Positions 22,055-60,479 of a DNA stretch of 64,000 bases are shown here, piece after piece (position 1 is the stretch's first letter; each line of letters begins with the position of its first letter). The notes under the pieces were generated by a model. The model was not told the DNA's origin. It did no database searches and worked only from the letters and a program-made list of their open reading frames with translations. The stretch lies in the NCBI RefSeq assembly GCF_902713615.1, contig NC_052158.1, forward strand, positions 13,264,546 through 13,328,545. The letters run 5' to 3'. Position numbers and translations under genes: made by a program. The DNA is from Scyliorhinus canicula (Eukaryota).

Positions 22055-23056
22055 CTGGTGTGAGGCAAGAGAGACGGTTCATTTGCCAAATCACCGTGTA
22101 ACCATTAGCAATCTGACACACCTACAGAAAAGGAGGTGGCGAGGAGCAGCCCCCCCCCCCCCCCCACCACCCCAGAGTCAAGTTTGACCTTCTTAGCAAC
22201 AAGACACTAATCAACAGCGCAGGGTGGAGGGGGGGGGGGGGGGGGTAAAAGTTCAATGTAACCATTAAACAGGCTGAGGAATAAACCTCATTCAACTAAG
22301 GTTTCCTTTAACATCCACTCAACGCCAGCCGATTTCCCGACGCATAGAGAACGGTTTCAATGGGAAATCCCATTGACCATCCCGTTGCCAGCGAACGGAG
22401 CGCCGCCGAGAAACACGCGGCTTGGGCACCGGATAGGCCCATCAGAATAAGTTTAACTTGAGTAGTAGCATTTTTAAACCAGTGGCTTCTCCCTTCAAAC
22501 TTCTTACTGTGCTCACCTCAGTCCAACGCCAGTATCTCCACATCATGCATTTATATAGTACCTTTAATATTCCAGGGCACTTAAGGAGCATTGCCAAAGA
22601 AAATTGAAGGAGGGGGATTCCTGAGCTTAATATCCGGACAACTAAACACACGCACCCCAGTCCCCAGTGGTGTGATGAAAGACCCGGGGGTGCAGAAGAG
22701 GTTAGAGTTGAAGGAACTGGGAGACTCCGGGGCCTGAAGGGCTGGAGGAAACGGCAGAGAAAGGGAGAGGCAAGCCCATGCAAGAATCTCAGAAATGGGG
22801 AGTCAGTGAGAACAGTTTGTGTCCGTTAGGACATAGGTGGCAAGAAGCCTGCATGAGCATTGGCTCTCTAACGATTTGAAGTTACATGTCACTTTCGAGA
22901 AATTAATTATCCATCAGTCAGACATCATTCCGGTTTGAATCACTTTTTGCTACTAGGAAGACAGATGTGCTTTAAAAGTGATTTAGATCCAGAGGCACAT
23001 GCCGCGCACATTTCAAACTGCTGGGAAATTCCTGAACTCCGGTCTGTTTGACTTAC

Positions 23057-23395
23057 TGTCAGTTACAGTGAGTTGTGTTCCTGTCCCGTTTCCTCCCCCA
23101 ATCGTCGGAACTTCCACCTCGCAGTAGTAAACATCCGAGTCCATTTTCGCTAAATTTTCGATTTTAATGAAAGCCACGCTTTGGGCAAATAAGTCCGCCC
23201 CTGACATCTGCATCCGCCCCTGGTAGAAAGGATTCCAAAGCGAAAGTTCCGTGTTTCCTGAGGCCCGCCTCCACACAACGCGTCCGACTTTCCAACTCAA
23301 TTCAAAGGTGCAGTTTAGTTGCACTGACTCGCCTTCTGTAACATTAATAGAGGCCGGAAACTGGACCACATGGATTTCACGCCTCAACCCATAAT
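23057..23395 (-). CDS. NCR3: NKp30/NCR3-like receptor gene A, exon 2: germline-joined VJ-type IgV domain
   Basis: Acceptor ttgtcctctag| and donor A|gtaagt; 339 nt, phase 1-1. Peptide ...EIHVVQFPASINVTEGESVQLNCTF...GRVVW...YQGR...DSDVYYCEVEVPTIGGGNGTGTQLTVTD has canonical V Cys/Trp/DxxxYxC, YxCxVEV and a J-like GxGTxLxV, as in recalled human NKp30. No MYPPPY, so not CD28/CTLA4. Confidence 0.9.
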
Positions 23396-23747
23396 CTAGA
23401 GGACAAATGGAACAATTGAATCTTAGAGACATCTGAAATAGGAACTGCTGTGGACCATTTGCTGAGTGGAGACTATTCCACTCTTCAGTAACAGCATCAC
23501 CTGCCTCAACTTCACTTGTCGTCATTAATGTCCCAATATTAATGAATTCCTTCAATCCAAAAATCTACTGAATTCTGTCTTGAATGTGCCCAATGAGCAT
23601 CCGCACTTCCCTGGGATAGAGCATTCCAAGATTCGCATCTCTCTGAATGAAGAAACCCACTTCCCGATTCCCCAAAGCGTCTGCACATTCTACAAGATAA
23701 GCGTGAGGAGTGTGATGCCATCGGATTCATGAGTGCAGCTTCAACAA

Positions 23748-47116: not shown

Positions 47117-47165
47117 CTGCAAAGAGTGTTTATTTTGGAATCGCATCGGTCGATTTGCTGCTTAC

Positions 47166-47510
47166 GTTGTACTACGAGTTTGGTACCGTTGCCCACGCTG
47201 AGTTCCCCAGTCATTGCTTTGACTGTGCAGTAATAAGTGGCGGAATCGTACTGCCTGAGGTCGGAGATTTTGATGAAGATTTTCCGCTCGGCGAAGTGAT
47301 GGGATTTCGACCTCTCCAGTCGGCTCATGAGCTGTAGGTCCCCCTTCAATTCGGTCGCGTTTTCACTCGAAGCACCGCGTGACCAGGAGACTTGTCCGAC
47401 AAGAACCTGCACCAAGCTACTTCCGTAGGTACAATTCATGGTCACCGAGTCTCCTTCGGTTGCGTCTACCGACTGAGGGGACTGCAGGACTGTAACTCGT
47501 GCTTCACCGG
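47166..47510 (-). CDS. NCR3: NKp30/NCR3-like receptor gene B, exon 2: germline-joined VJ-type IgV domain
   Basis: Acceptor ttgatttctctcag| and donor C|gtaagc; 345 nt, phase 1-1. Peptide GEARVTVLQSPQSVDATEGDSVTMNCTY...GQVSW...SRL...IFIKISDLRQYDSATYYCTVKAMTGELSVGNGTKLVVQ; GNGTKLVV matches recalled NKp30 GNGTRLVV. Confidence 0.88.
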
Positions 47511-47831
47511 CTGAGAGAAATCAAAGGAGAATCGAAATGTTAGCTTTCAAGGGCGATTTCAACTCAAAGCGGCAAGAGGTGACACGATCAGGGTTACACT
47601 GGTTTTACTGCCGGCTCAGTCGCCACACACCTACCCAGGGAAGACCGGAGCGCAGTGTTAATGTGGCTGCACTGATAATCAAAGACCCACTCGTTAAGAA
47701 TTTTGGATCAAAACCCAGTGCAACGGATTTCGGTTAATAAATCTGGAAAATAAAAGGGGAAGTAGAAAATAGAAGTTGGCCATTCGGCCCTGCGACATTC
47801 CTCCGCCAGTCAATATGACCATGGCTAATTC

Positions 47832-54160: not shown

Positions 54161-54488
54161 TTATCTATTTAAAAAAATACGATGAGGTATTCTGCCTCTG
54201 CCAAACATTTAGCCTGTGCTTTCCAGTACCTAGCACCGACTAGAGGAAAGTATTTAACCTCAACGCCCCTCTCATCCTTCGATCAGTTTATTTAGATATG
54301 TGCTTTCAGGCAGCACTCCATCTAACAAGGGACTGGGCCTTCCTATTCACACCATCTAGGCTTCTCATAATTATGGACACCATAATTACATCTTTCCATG
54401 ACCTCTTCCGTTCCAAAGATAACAACCACAGACCATTCAACCTTTCCTCATCGCTAGCATTCTACATCCTCCTAAATCTCCTTTGTAC

Positions 54489-55477
54489 TGTAGCCACCTA
54501 AGATGGACACTGGGCTACAAAATGGAGAACTGCTAAGGCTGCAGGGAAAAACAGTCTTAGCAAGGACAAGCAGTTTGCAGGAGACTAATTAGCATTCTGC
54601 ACGTACAGAAACCAGTTTTTGGCCAGGTGCAGTTTCAGCCAAAGGTGTAAATGGCAACAAGATCTACATAGTAATGAGGTGATCCAGATCCAGACCCCGC
54701 ACAATAGAAACATTTAAGTATCAATAGATACTTTTGAGTAGACGCCCAGACAGAACGGCACCACTGTATCCAACACAAAGAACCATAGGGACAGCACACC
54801 CATCGAGAAACGACCCTCAGATTGGGGGGGTTTGGAAGATATCGATTGGGAAAGGCCCAATCGATACATGGCAGGTAAAAGGCCTGCCCTGAAGGGGCAC
54901 GGACTTCTAGGAACTATAAAAGCAGACCCCGCACATGGTTCGGTCTGTTTGGCTCCAGCTCTCTGCTTTGGCTCCGGCTCTGACTGCTACTTTTGCTCCA
55001 GCTCCGCTTTGCTGCTACATCGCATCCTGACTCCAGTTCCATCACCAGCCGTTGAGCCATCAGCCATCGAACTGTAAGTGCCAATACAACGATCGCTACA
55101 TGATCCAGACCTTGCTAGATCCTGACAACTTTAAGTACCTGAGAGTTGCAGACCAAGAACGGGACGAAGGCTTTGCTCCCTGACCTTGCCTGTTCCTGTC
55201 TAGATAAGTATTTTAGTTGTTTAGTATTAGAAGTAAGTTAGTCTCTTTAGCGTATGCATGTGTATTTATTATATTTGTCATAATAAATATCAATCGTTTG
55301 GACTTACTAATCGGTGTACAGATTTATTACTTTGAACCTGACCTTGATATACTTGTGAGGTGTCTAAATACGGCACCTGGCGACTCCTGAGCATAATTAC
55401 ATACACAGAGCCATAGTAGTGTTAAGCACGGCCTTTAAACGGAGGTGTGTTAATACACTCCAGTAAAACGAGCAACA
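54489..55477 (+). repeat. 5' LTR (989 nt)
   Basis: Starts TGTAGCC, ends AGCAACA; internal TATAAAA and AATAAA. Manual count versus the 3' LTR: about 22 substitutions and 3 small indels. Confidence 0.95.
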
Positions 55478-55482
55478 TTTAG

Positions 55483-55502
55483 TGGCGACATCCTGACGGG
55501 AC
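55483..55502 (+). other. Primer-binding site (TGGCGACATCCTGACGGGAC)
   Basis: TGG-starting motif 5 nt after the 5' LTR. Loosely resembles the recalled complement of a tRNA-Arg 3' end; tRNA identity uncertain. Confidence 0.6.
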
Positions 55503-55787
55503 GCGGTTACAAGTGGCACCCCCACTCCGTCAAGGACCCAGAAATTTGAATTGGAAATCTGAGTAAAGAAAAAGGAAAAATCACAAGTAATCAAGGTGTT
55601 CAAACGAATAAATATAATTCAGAAGTGTGTTTTGTGCATGCGTACTCACAGGGTTGTAAGGAAAACCTGAGAGCTTTTGTTGCGACGATCTGTCAGGAGT
55701 TTTGTGAGCGGAACATAGCGTAAGCCTTACCCGTCTTGTAAAACATAACCTCAACACCCCCTGTTCCAAATTTAAGAGAAAGACAAA

Positions 55788-57184
55788 ATGGCCATGCAGG
55801 CAATGGAACGCCTCATGAACCCAGAACGGTTTGTGGTCGCAGCGACCAGCAGTAGCCGAGTAGGGCAGTGTCCCGTGTGGGAGCTGGAACTCCGCAAGTA
55901 TCTGCAAGGAAAGGGATGGCCCCTTTGGAAAGAGTTCTGTATGAATGAGGAGACAGGTCCCGGAAGTATAGGACATACTTGGTGGGAGAACCTCTCTCAA
56001 ATTCATAAGAAAAACCTTAGTAAATCACGCAAGCCTATGGCAATCGTGTCCTGTTTGGCACAGTTGCGAGGCACTGAGGAGGTCGTTCAGACGCTCCGGG
56101 CAGAATTAGAAGAACGAAATAGGATGAGCAAAGTGGATGTCAGGGACATCGTGAAGGAGAATATGGAACTTAGAGGGAAGCTGGCAGAGAAGGGTAGCGA
56201 GGTGGATGATGCCAAGAGGGCACATCAGTCATGTCTAGCCCATCTGAGCAGTTCCCAGACCCAGTATGAAAAGGCCTATCAGGACGTGCAACGTGCCGTC
56301 CTGATAAGAGAAGAATCAGAGAAGCAGGTAGAGGCATTGCAGAGGCAATGCTCTGACCTTAAGGCAGCGTTAAGAGCACTCCATGCTGCCACCACAGAAC
56401 AAAGACAAAGTACAGTGGATCATGCGAAGTGTAGAAAGCAGATTGCGGAACTGCAATCTCTGCTTTCAGTGCAGAATGGGTTCCAAAGTACTTTTGGAAC
56501 GCAGTTAGATGAGAATGCCCCAGACTGGCAGGAATTAAGTGAGACAGGGGCAGCACGGTGGCACAGTGGTTAGCATTGCTGCCTACGGCGCTGAGGACCC
56601 GGGTTCGAATCCCGGCCCTGGGTCACTGGCTGTGTGGAGTTTGCACATTCTCCCCGTGTTTGCGTGGGTTTCACCCCCACAACCCAAAAGATGTGCAGGA
56701 TAGGTGGATTGGCCACACTAAATTGCCCCTTAATTGGAAAAAATTGGGCACTCTAAATTTAAAAAAAAAAAAAAAAAAGTGAGACAGCACAGCACTATGT
56801 TCAAGGAACATGTGCGCCAGCAGCGCAGCAGAAAAGACAAGCACCCCAACCCCCCACAGATCAGATAGCTACCGTACCCATGAATCCAGTCACCACCCAA
56901 AGGAAAGCAACCACAGAAGGCGCACCCGATATCACCTACACCACCCCCTTAACTGTAACCCAACTCAGTGATGCGTGTGAGAAAATCACTCCGTTTCTCC
57001 CCACCGCAGACCCCCACCAATTTTTCGCGAAAGTAAAACAACAGGCAACCATGTACGGCCTGGACGAGAGAGAGCAGGTTAAGCTCACGGTTCTGAGCTT
57101 AGACCAGTCTGTTGTAGCAGCCCTCCCCGACCCACAGAACGTTGGAGGAGGCACACTAGAGGAAATCCACACCTCCATTTTAGA
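55788..57184 (+). pseudogene. gag-like ORF interrupted by a SINE (56548-56776) and truncated near 57185
   Basis: The 261-aa ORF at 55788 and the ORF at 56880 are in one frame once the SINE and one TSD copy are removed (...QELSET-AQHYVQG...PMNPVTT...). Long coiled-coil, then a capsid-like region. Confidence 0.8.
56548..56776 (+). mobile_element. HE1, poly(A)-tail subfamily, inserted in gag
   Basis: TSD AAGTGAGACAG at 56537-56547 and 56777-56787; long poly(A). Confidence 0.95.
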
Positions 57185-57820
57185 TGTTTTGTTTGTTAGT
57201 TTATGTTTGTTTGATTGTTGATATGTTAAGGGTTTGATTGCAGATCTTTTCAGCTGAAAAGATTGTGACCACCTCACATTATCGCTACAATGTCTGGAGC
57301 ACAGCTCAACTTTTCACAAGAAGCATCTTGGCTCCTCCCTTGTTTTTAGGTGCCCCTCTATTCGGCGAATAGAGGCTGCAAACCCACGGTTAACACATTC
57401 TTGCCCGTTCATTCCAGGTTACTGAGGCAGTGGAGAAACGGCACTGAGGACCCGCCCTGTCTGAGAACCCACTTTGGTCAGCCAAGCTCGGGTACGGCAC
57501 AGCACGCCTTACCCGGGGATCCCATCCAAATCTTATCCGTAGCAGCCCATACGCAACCCATTCGACCTTTCGTTTAAAAATTTGTTTCATTTTACGTTAG
57601 GCAGCCCTTAGGCCGCCACCCCACATGCTATTTACACCCAGGAACATTCGGATGGTAAATTTGCAAAGCCTGCGAGATGGCTCGCAGGAGGAAAGTTGTT
57701 AGGTGTATTCTGTTCCTAAATTCGCTTTTGAAACAAAAAAATGAGGGGAGTCACAGGGTGTGACTTGGCCGGTCATTTAATGGGTCAATTGGAATGAGAG
57801 GACAGATACACTAACAAGTA

Positions 57821-58178
57821 GGGGGCAGCATGGTAGCATGGTGGTTAGCATAAATGCTTCACAGCTCCAGGGTCCCAGGTTCAATTCCCGAGCTGGGTCA
57901 CTGTCTGTGCGGAGTCTGCACGTCCTCCCCGTGTGTGCGTGGGTTTCCTCCGGGTGCTCCGGTTTCCTCCCACAGTCCAAAGATGTGCGGGTTAGGTGGA
58001 TTGGCCATGCTAAATTGCCCGTAGTGTCCTAAAAAAGTAAGGTTAAGGGGGGGGGGGGGGTTGTTGGGTTACGGGTATAGGGTTGATACGTGGGTTTGAG
58101 TAGGGTGATCATGGCTCGGCACAACATCGAGGGCCGAAGGGCCTGTTCTGTGCTGTACTGTTCTATGTTCTATGTTCT
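57821..58178 (+). mobile_element. HE1 young subfamily inside the LTR element
   Basis: TSD AAGTA; (ttctatg)n end. Confidence 0.93.
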
Positions 58179-58309
58179 AAGTACGGATATTAAAACTGTG
58201 TATTGACAGATACTGTGCTTGATCCCATAGCTTTCGAAGGACGAAAGAGGGTTCACGGCAAGGATGGGCCATACAGGAGGAAGAGCACAAAGAGAACGAA
58301 GAGAAGACC

Positions 58310-58654
58310 ATGATGGAAGCCTACCTATTACTGTTAAATGTTGTATTTGTATATGTGGAAGCAAGTCACGTTTCCCCCACAACCCCAGCCGTCAATGTTT
58401 CCCTCACACCAACTCCCCCGTGCGCAGCTCTGATCACCGAAGTTCAGACCTGGTGCACAAAATTTATGACATGGTATTCAATGTCGTACGTGATTGAATC
58501 ACTGCTGGTGATTGCAATCCTCTGCATAATTGTACAGACCCTCAGGTTGAGGAAATGGAGAAGGAGAGCCTCCCGTTCCTGCCCCTCAACCATCTACGGA
58601 GTTCGATCCCCTATTTTTCGGTTTCATCAATCCCCCTTGCCCCTTGATGAATAA
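58310..58654 (+). CDS. 114-aa small type-I membrane protein in the env/accessory position of the LTR element
   Basis: Signal-like N-terminus MMEAYLLLLNVVFVYVEA; T/P-rich ectodomain with an NVS sequon and 2 Cys; TM YVIESLLVIAILCIIVQTL; polybasic RLRKWRRR. Confidence 0.65.
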   Translation: MMEAYLLLLNVVFVYVEASHVSPTTPAVNVSLTPTPPCAALITEVQTWCTKFMTWYSMSYVIESLLVIAILCIIVQTLRLRKWRRRASRSCPSTIYGVRSPIFRFHQSPLPLDE

Positions 58655-59007
58655 AGCAATATGTTAATAAAGACACTAATGTATTATATTGTTCTGAACT
58701 CGACTGCCGAGTCAGAAAGTGATATGTAATGTGGTGTGAATGGATAAGGTTTTTAGACTGTAATAAAATGTTTAAAGTAAGATAAGGATAGTACTTGTGA
58801 TAGGTAGAGGTTCCCGGTTATTGGTAATGCATGTCCCCTTTTCACATAGCGCCAAGTAGAAATGTCAGATAAAATTTTTCTTGCCATAGATAAAGACAGA
58901 GTAGACGCCCAGGAACTTGCTAAGGTCAGGGAACACAAAGAGGGCACCCAAAGGCACTCGAGGAAACGTGCATAGGTGATCTTTCACAATTTCTTGTGAG
59001 GATCACA

Positions 59008-59016
59008 AGGAGGGAA
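59008..59016 (+). other. Polypurine tract
   Basis: AGGAGGGAA immediately before the TG of the 3' LTR. Confidence 0.85.
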
Positions 59017-60008
59017 TGTAGCCACCTAAGATGGACACTGGGCTACAAAATGGAGAACTGCTAAGGCTGCAGGGAAAAACAGTCTCAGCAAGGACAAGCA
59101 GTTTGCAGGAGACTAATTAGCATTCTGCACGTACAGAAACCAGTTTTTGGCCAGGTGCAGAGTTTCAGCCAAAGGTGTAAATGGCAACAAGATCTACATA
59201 GTAATGAGGTGATCCAGATCCAGACTCCGCACAATAGAAACATTTAAGTATCAATAGATACTTTTGAGTAGACGCCCAGACAGAACGGCACCACTGTATC
59301 CAACACAAAGAACCATAGGGACCGCCCACCCATCGAGAAACGACCCTCAGATTGGGGGGTTTGGAAGATATCGATTGGGAAAGGCCCAATCAATACATGG
59401 CAGGTAAAAGGCCCGCCCCGAAGGGGCACGGACTTCTAGGAACTATAAAAGTAGACCCCGCACATGGTTCGGTCTGTTTGGTTCCAGCTCTCTGCTTTGG
59501 CTCCGGCTCTGACTGCTACTTTTGCTCCGGCTCCACTTTGCTGCTACATCGCATCCTGACTCCAGTTCCATCACTAGCCATTGAGCCATCAGCCATCGAA
59601 CTGTAAGTGCCAATACAACGATCGCTACGTGACCCAGACCTTGCTAGATCCTGACAATTTTAAGTACCTGAGAGTTGCAGACCAAGAACGGGACGAAGGC
59701 TTTGCTCCCTGACCTTGCCTGTTCCTGTCTAGATAAGTATTTTAGTTGTTTAGTATTAGAAGTAAGTTAGTCTCTTTAGCATATGCATGTGTGTTTATTA
59801 TATTTGTCATAATAAATATCAATCATTTGGACTTACTAATCGGTGTACAGATTTATTACTTTGAACCTGACCTTGATATACTTGTGAGGTGTCTAAATAC
59901 GGCACCTGGTGACTCCTGAGCATAATTACATGCACAGAGCCATAGTAGTGTTAAGCACACGGCCTTTAAACGGAGGCGTGTTAATACACTCCAGTAAAAC
60001 GAGCAACA
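59017..60008 (+). repeat. 3' LTR (992 nt)
   Basis: Near-identical to 54489-55477; the length difference is explained by the three indels. Confidence 0.95.
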
Positions 60009-60479
60009 GTACTCGCTGGAGTGCCATCACGTGCTTCCTGTAATGTGGCGACCAGTATTGTACACGTTGATTTGGCTTTGGAACAAAGTGCTTTAAAAAT
60101 ATAAATTCTTTCATGGGCTGTGGGCACGTTAGCAAGGCAAACAGTCGTTCCCTATGCATAACTGAACCGAGAGCTGTCATAGGCTATTTCGGAGCCAACC
60201 ACATTGTTGTTGATCTGTAGTCACATGTAGACGTGACCAGATCGACGAATGATAACAGATTCCGTTCCCGAGAAAGGCATTAGTGAACTAGGTGTTTCTT
60301 TCTTTTGCAGCAATCAATGGTAGCTTCATTGGCACCGTTACTTCTAGTAAATGTAAGTGAGCCACATTGAGAGTCTGATTGATTATATTAAATTTGTTAT
60401 CAGTGTAATTCAGGCGCCATTGTGGTATTTCAACCCATGCCACTCGGGCCTAAGCTAAGACATTGAGGTAATCGGTCCA

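Follow-up and report, generated by a model that had tools for sequence, protein, structure and literature searches.

An env-less endogenous retrovirus (ERV) family of the catshark Scyliorhinus canicula encodes, at the site where env would lie, a 114-residue protein that we refer to as ORF3. ORF3 is real and under purifying selection, and as a retroviral membrane protein that takes the place of env it has apparently not been described before. By analogy with small membrane-active proteins of other elements and viruses, we propose that it acts as a minimal substitute for Env in the short-range transfer of capsids from cell to cell, a reading to which we give a probability of about 0.4. ERVs without env are regarded as retrotransposons confined to the cell, for which Gag and Pol suffice and which amplify within the germ line. 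The presence of a surface-directed third gene that is selected across subfamilies, in two catshark species and in the youngest burst of copies suggests that something outside the cytosol matters to the replication of this family.

The window analyzed here is a stretch of 64,000 nucleotides of the S. canicula genome (NC_052158.1, positions 13,264,546 to 13,328,545). An earlier sequence-only reading had described a 114-aa open reading frame at 58310-58654 on the forward strand, and translation of the window returns exactly this frame, 114 aa followed by a stop. The host element is an LTR retroelement at 54489-60008, the LTRs of which are 97.3% identical (966/993 columns). Its features are as follows.

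54489-55477 (+): 5' LTR (TG...CA), from LTR alignment, with a 4-bp target duplication at 54485-54488
55483-55502 (+): primer binding site (PBS), a diverged variant of the tRNA-Arg(TCT) 3'-end complement found in other copies
55788-56547 (+): gag, 5' part, without an N-terminal myristoylation motif and with a long predicted coiled coil
56548-56776 (+): SINE inside gag, present only in the window copy among the copies compared
56777-57186 (+): gag, middle part, which stops at the join left by a deletion of about 5 kb
57184-58230 (+): non-coding pol-ORF3 spacer, with a second SINE at about 57824-58178
58229-58230 (+): splice acceptor AG, then a purine-rich leader; position kept across subfamilies and marked by NCBI gene-model joins and two contigs
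58264-58497 (+): upstream ORF, out of frame and overlapping ORF3, specific to the window copy
58310-58654 (+): ORF3, 114 aa, from translation, alignment and structure model
59007-59016 (+): polypurine tract (PPT), from sequence
59017-60008 (+): 3' LTR, from LTR alignment, with the target duplication at 60009-60012

The window copy is a defective, deleted and SINE-interrupted member of its family. The deletion, at about 57185, took the 3' end of gag and all of pol. Among 58 copies examined, none of the 47 other leaders that could be parsed has an ATG at the spot of the out-of-frame ATG at 58264, and because this upstream ATG is specific to the window copy, that copy may translate ORF3 poorly. 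ORF3 lies upstream of the PPT, as had been noted, but it is not adjacent to it, since the stop codon is 352 bases away. The window copy alone says little, and the weight of the argument rests on the family. The PBS begins five bases past the LTR end (window 55478-55502). Several family copies have a PBS complementary to a genomic tRNA-Arg(TCT), and many have drifted from this complement; a second TGGCG motif sits within U5.

The family is abundant and recently active in the shark genome. A search of the 4.2-Gb genome with the ORF3 protein gave 5466 first-look candidates, which is not a copy number; 150 of these were scored and were 90-100% identical, with a stop in four. In one very young subfamily, at least 150 copies encode a single identical ORF3 protein (150/150 scored, in a ranking that favors identity), indicating that the gene has been kept in the most recently replicating lineage. 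Full-length copies have the order LTR-gag-pol-ORF3-LTR and are about 9.7 kb long. This order, with a spacer between pol and ORF3, was seen in 15 of 20 ten-kb stretches taken from the top matches, and the other five were interrupted. Named ORF3 homologues come from two Scyliorhinus catshark species. Gag contains a single CCHC knuckle, is predicted to form a long coiled coil and lacks a myristoylation motif (no MG start); its structure model is poor (pLDDT 44). In L036 and other copies, Pol ends in a low-complexity tail rich in P, T, S and H that extends about 110-180 residues past the integrase core and varies in length.

Is ORF3 a constant part of the element? When 60 copies were chosen by reverse transcriptase (RT) alone, with a frog RT as query, 47 had an ORF3 homologue downstream in the same place. 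By a strict test, 28 of these were open and 18 were not; the remaining one was inverted. The other 13 had no ORF3 in the 6 kb fetched and were mostly cut off or broken by other elements, and inspection by eye of their frames of at least 200 aa revealed no env-like frame. ORF retention, one of the checks proposed at the outset, was also assessed in 29 copies chosen by their 3' UTR, with the window copy left out. Most keep the frame (20 open, 112-123 aa; 9 broken).

The sequence-only reading had also raised the possibility that ORF3 is what remains of a longer env still present in autonomous copies. We found no longer env in the family. There was none between pol and the LTR in the 60 RT-chosen copies or the full-length stretches, and the spacer, which runs for 793-1528 nt from the first stop past the integrase core to ORF3, contained no frame longer than 207 codons in any of the 25 copies measured. 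The genome has 78 matches to the env family PF00429. We inspected 32 such stretches, and the Pol adjoining env was of class I type in all but one, which had little pol. Two loci with env upstream of ORF3 were considered as env-bearing autonomous copies of the family and rejected, as in both the env belongs to a class I provirus that is nested in the element and has LTRs of its own. These proviruses (L193 and L044) entered the pol-ORF3 spacer twice independently in the same orientation, and their LTRs are near-identical (747 and 584 bp).

From its sequence, ORF3 is predicted to be a type I glycoprotein, the mature ectodomain of which is about 40 residues long. A predicted signal peptide (residues 1-18, cleavage predicted by eye) is followed by an S/T/P-rich stalk with the sequon N29-x-S31, an aromatic amphipathic helix at 47-57, a transmembrane segment (TM) at about 58-78 that contains E63 and C72, a basic cluster at 79-87, and a tail with an invariant Y96 and an I-F-x-F motif. 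We aligned 22 copies that span 44-92% identity to the window protein. All of them retain the N-x-S sequon, an aromatic helix next to the membrane, the Glu in the TM and the cluster of basic residues. A hydrophobic N-terminal stretch precedes the invariant sequon in 21 of the 22 (9-residue hydropathy 1.9-3.8; one at 0.9). The invariant residues are N29, S31, W48, F52, W55, Y56, S57, Y60, E63, K82, W83, R85, Y96, I102, F103 and F105, together with P111 of the tail. Every copy has four to six basic residues per ten next to the membrane and an ectodomain helix with a hydrophobic moment of 0.48-0.58 over 11 residues. That N-x-S is kept in 22/22 copies while x varies suggests lumenal or extracellular exposure. 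Two ectodomain cysteines had been noted in the window copy; C49 is, like C72, nearly invariant across the alignment, but C38 varies. With only one conserved ectodomain Cys, the 22 copies share no conserved cystine noose, and none has an MG start for myristoylation. Length is 112-120 aa across subfamilies, with two copies reading through further. AlphaFold models the protein as a single helix (39-90), confident from about 50 to 80.

Database searches gave ORF3 no significant match outside its own family. Pfam returned only weak matches, among them TMEM156, which 19 of the 22 members matched with an E of 0.002 at best, short of the cut-off, and a genome search with the TMEM156 family returned further ORF3 subfamilies only. 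A PDB sequence search with the ORF3 profile gave a single match at E 1.1, Foldseek against viral structures gave nothing at E<=0.001, every ESM Atlas score was below 0.9, and a word-index protein search with the single ORF as query had no match at 62-200 aa. No sequence or fold match to a fusogen emerged from the Pfam, PDB and Foldseek searches. In the parts of the literature within our scope, which lay outside most subscription journals and Repbase/Dfam, we found no account of the gene (PMC12440569, PMC8278194, PMC12193657 and bioRxiv 10.1101/2024.03.25.586437 included). The initial proposal of an uncharacterized retroelement membrane protein in the env position thus stands, with a selected ORF3 at the env site and no described match.

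Selection was measured as dN/dS by the Nei-Gojobori method on 28 open ORFs, with one duplicate dropped. The ratio for ORF3 was 0.40, 0.32 and 0.30 for pairs less than 10%, 10-25% and more than 25% divergent, respectively; across subfamilies it came to about 0.3 for the whole protein and to 0.13-0.20 for the membrane core. Four other reading frames gave 0.86-1.95 against 0.30-0.40 in the coding frame, and the antiparallel frame that shares third positions gave 0.45-0.62 but contains stops. In 12 disjoint pairs, pooled dN/dS for ORF3 was 0.32 (range 0.22-0.41), and an integrase control gave 0.09 in 10 pairs. Because deep branches are shared and only open ORFs were used, the significance of these ratios is overstated, but their direction is clear: far below 1, which answers the dN/dS check that had been proposed. 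By region, with the deepest divergence class saturated for two regions, dN/dS was 0.60-0.67 in the signal region, 0.41-0.74 in the stalk, 0.14-0.23 in the TM, 0.27-0.38 in the tail, and lowest, at 0.10-0.11, in the membrane-proximal ectodomain helix. The strongest constraint on this helix suggests that the face toward the outer leaflet is the most selected part of the protein, as would be expected for a membrane-active peptide.

These comparisons also bear on whether ORF3 is simply a decaying or neutral remnant of env. The gene occupies the env position and has a signal peptide at one end and a TM plus tail at the other, as would remain after an internal deletion of env. However, a frame-specific dN/dS of about 0.3, a length that holds steady across subfamilies, homologues in a second catshark species, and a comparison in which none of six class I env sequences from the genome resembled ORF3 (best E 0.3) all speak against it. 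On these sequence comparisons neutral decay is excluded and the remnant explanation is very improbable, whereas an env-derived origin of ORF3 is possible.

What kind of retrovirus carries this gene? It had been described simply as an LTR element, and LTRs, target duplication and PPT bear that out; the order of domains in Pol refines it to a true retrovirus. All three Pol frames scanned read protease-RT-tether-RNase H-integrase (PF17917/PF17919, PF00075, rve), and a second RNase H after a degenerate tether and before integrase identifies the element as a retrovirus. The closest Pol relatives are amphibian (frog), coelacanth and turtle ERVs (at most 50% identity), with the snakehead retrovirus (SnRV) at 35%, and the best PDB matches of Pol are to foamy Pol. 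A quick RT tree of 56 rows, in which ERV-L, ERV-S and foamy references are absent, groups the family with frog and coelacanth ERVs (SH-aLRT 91) and outside both the gamma/epsilon clade (100) and a Loki-like clade (95). On this sequence evidence class III, clade Huo, is the best placement for the element, as SnRV-like (classification as in PMC6001957). Cartilaginous-fish ERV RTs are mostly of clade III (PMC11089739), and class III ERVs were already known in sharks (PMC4422223; PMC11089739). Unlike this family, SnRV and XtERV-S have full env genes; since env loss is common in ERVs, its absence here leaves the placement intact. In the accounts consulted, we found no description of the SnRV accessory ORFs as membrane proteins, nor of an ORF3-like gene in ERV-L, which is env-less like the ORF3 family. 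In the closest Pol relative, frog P0004, the C-terminal 140 residues appear by eye to hold a hydrophobic signal and then an Ig-like domain, and frog relatives may encode a different small surface protein 3' of pol.

Two other assignments were considered. A first reading as a lokiretrovirus, from NYNRIN-like labels, was dropped because the RT motif searched for also occurs in SnRV rows and because the RT falls outside the Loki-like clade; a Loki-type row from the supplement of PMC7947760 resembles that separate clade in our tree. Lokiretroviruses share a dual RNase H, a coiled-coil Gag and aquatic vertebrate hosts with the family but have a long paramyxo-F-like Env (PMC7947760), and no such Env (PF00523) is present in the element. 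That study reports no lokiretrovirus in any of the six chondrichthyan genomes that it screened (PMC7947760). ERV-Spuma.0-Sca likewise comes from a catshark and is about 9 kb long, and it has a spuma-like Pol, an 866-nt LTR, a 2259-nt gag and a 1326-nt annotated env (PMC10699275). The ORF3-family LTR start and RT motif had no match in the supplements of PMC10699275 that were searched, and by these sequence comparisons ERV-Spuma.0-Sca is a different family.

The 3' region of the element is transcribed in sense, so that a transcript, another of the checks proposed, is present. In an oligo-dT RNA run (X24), 1387 reads mapped at 88% identity onto one family copy. Depth in the usual-sense orientation was 25-60 over the spacer and ORF3 versus 0.6-10 over gag-pol, an excess that could stem from oligo-dT bias or host read-through. 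A single-cell run (X23) covers the 3' region as well. Two candidate acceptors, near 57349 and 58208, had been suggested. An acceptor in this region is supported, but it is the AG at 58229-58230 rather than 58208, and 57349 is without support. The evidence for it comes from two contigs of run X5, whose status as RNA is a guess, in which foreign sequence joins the element at the position matching 58231; from several catshark NCBI gene models that join host exons about 25 codons 5' of where ORF3 starts, with identical residues at the join in three of these models; and from the conservation of the position in subfamilies. The search for spliced reads thus supported the acceptor, but no viral donor-acceptor joint was listed in the X24 reads. 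In catshark NCBI models P0059-P0068 (HEPACAM2-like, KIAA1958, SUGCT, B3GAT1-like and CFAP36), ORF3 is a spliced last exon, which would give host proteins a TM and a basic tail.

The initial reading had likened ORF3 to the reovirus FAST fusogens. FAST proteins (p10, p14, p15 and p22) share with ORF3 their size, a single TM, a mature ectodomain of about 40 residues and a juxtamembrane polybasic motif. Membership nevertheless fails on topology. In FAST proteins the TM is a reverse signal anchor and there is no cleavable signal, whereas the signal peptide of ORF3 is predicted to be cleaved and its stalk to be glycosylated; FAST proteins also carry a myristoylated or cystine-noose fusion peptide, and ORF3 lacks a myristoylation motif and a conserved cystine noose. 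By sequence, then, ORF3 is not a member of the FAST family. The membrane-proximal polybasic motif of p14 is a Golgi-export signal, and p14-V9T, a construct with a new glycosylation site in its ectodomain, does not bring about fusion (PMC3979892). The latter counts against a fusogenic role of ORF3, in which a sequon is invariant. By analogy with p14, the polybasic motif on its own is a sign of delivery to the surface, not of fusion (PMC3979892). Pistolvirus p33, known in silico only, places a FAST-like module behind a secreted N-terminal part and is a partial precedent for the layout of ORF3.

A further parallel comes from insects. In Drosophila, MDG1 elements that lack env rely on a short TM protein carrying a polybasic patch to pass from soma to oocyte, and in some lepidopteran elements the gene for it, sORF2, lies 3' of pol (bioRxiv 10.1101/2025.03.14.642691). 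Like ORF3, sORF2 is a short single-pass protein of an env-less element, with an amphipathic ectodomain motif and a polybasic patch. It differs in belonging to insect Metaviridae rather than Retroviridae, in being usually N-myristoylated and 63-107 aa long, and in that the text consulted mentions no signal peptide, whereas ORF3 has a predicted cleaved signal and a predicted glycosylated stalk. The sORF2 survey covered arthropod elements only (bioRxiv 10.1101/2025.03.14.642691), and fusion by sORF2 was not reproduced in heterologous assays. Features of the FAST and sORF2 types were also drawn from PMC7767094 and PMC12945298.

How might ORF3 stand in for Env? The gene is at the env site behind a conserved acceptor, and an env-like spliced mRNA that uses the acceptor ending at 58230 would express it. 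Cleavage of the signal peptide and N-glycosylation would yield a type I surface glycoprotein, which the juxtamembrane basic cluster would help deliver to the plasma membrane, where the aromatic helix could perturb the membrane. ORF3 might then gather capsids at cell contacts and allow their direct passage into a neighboring cell, probably en route to the germ line. We favor this role because an element that did no more than retrotranspose inside a single germ cell would have little apparent use for a glycosylated protein at the surface, the most constrained part of which faces outward. A bolder version, which we regard as doubtful, is that in a vertebrate retrovirus lineage Env gave way to a cell-cell fusogen of 114 residues with a signal peptide, and that the lineage reached thousands of copies through transfer from soma to germ line without Env. 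If true, the architecture would be new among fusogens and the strategy would be the first of the sORF2/FAST type within Retroviridae, and fusion would mean that the sORF2 route of Drosophila has a vertebrate counterpart of different design. A different function would still define a new family of retroviral accessory proteins, and ORF3 is small enough to study alone.

Other functions would make use of the same features. ORF3 could be a non-fusogenic membrane anchor, the tail of which recruits non-myristoylated Gag for assembly and budding within one cell or into vesicles, so that only the assembly role of Env is kept. Foamy-type Gag depends on Env for budding, and the Gag of this family resembles such Gags in having no MG motif and a long predicted coiled coil. 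The tail is itself selected and holds Y96, I102, F103, F105 and P111 invariant, and the top leads from the Atlas are clusters of influenza M2, whose score of 0.85-0.86 is weak and speaks to architecture. Still, an anchor leaves unexplained why the ectodomain helix is the most constrained segment and why the sequon is invariant, and we consider it unlikely. Alternatively, ORF3 could modulate immunity, as an adaptor mimic resembling CD3-zeta or FcR-gamma without an ITAM that binds receptors with basic TMs (TCR, NKp30), or as a Vpu-like antagonist or viroporin. The ORF3 TM aligns without gaps with CD3-zeta-like and FcR-gamma-like TM exons of the genome (L171 and L172), with the Tyr, the acidic residue and the juxtamembrane basic residues in register; the shuffle p values of 0.003-0.010 for zeta and 0.014-0.055 for gamma belong to a comparison picked by eye and after the fact. 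The acidic residue, E63, is invariant, and with only one Tyr the tail has no ITAM. The profile HMM score, however, is about 0 bits, and PF11628 reported no ORF3 copy among 64 candidates scored or in the 22-member scan. The zeta dimer depends on a Cys and a Tyr/Thr pair, neither of which is kept in ORF3, where Ser takes the position of the Cys at the start of the TM. A decoy must also share a cell with its receptor, and selection for this would be difficult in a germ-line element that lacks env; we judge an immune role to be rather improbable.

The window also contains two Ig V-type exons, at 47140-47520 (-) and about 23016-23400 (-), which are 35% identical to each other. The best non-engineered PDB match of the former is NKp30 (NCR3; E 5e-10). 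The ERV lies about 7 kb upstream of this exon on the opposite strand, a proximity that is probably due to chance since copies of the family are so numerous.
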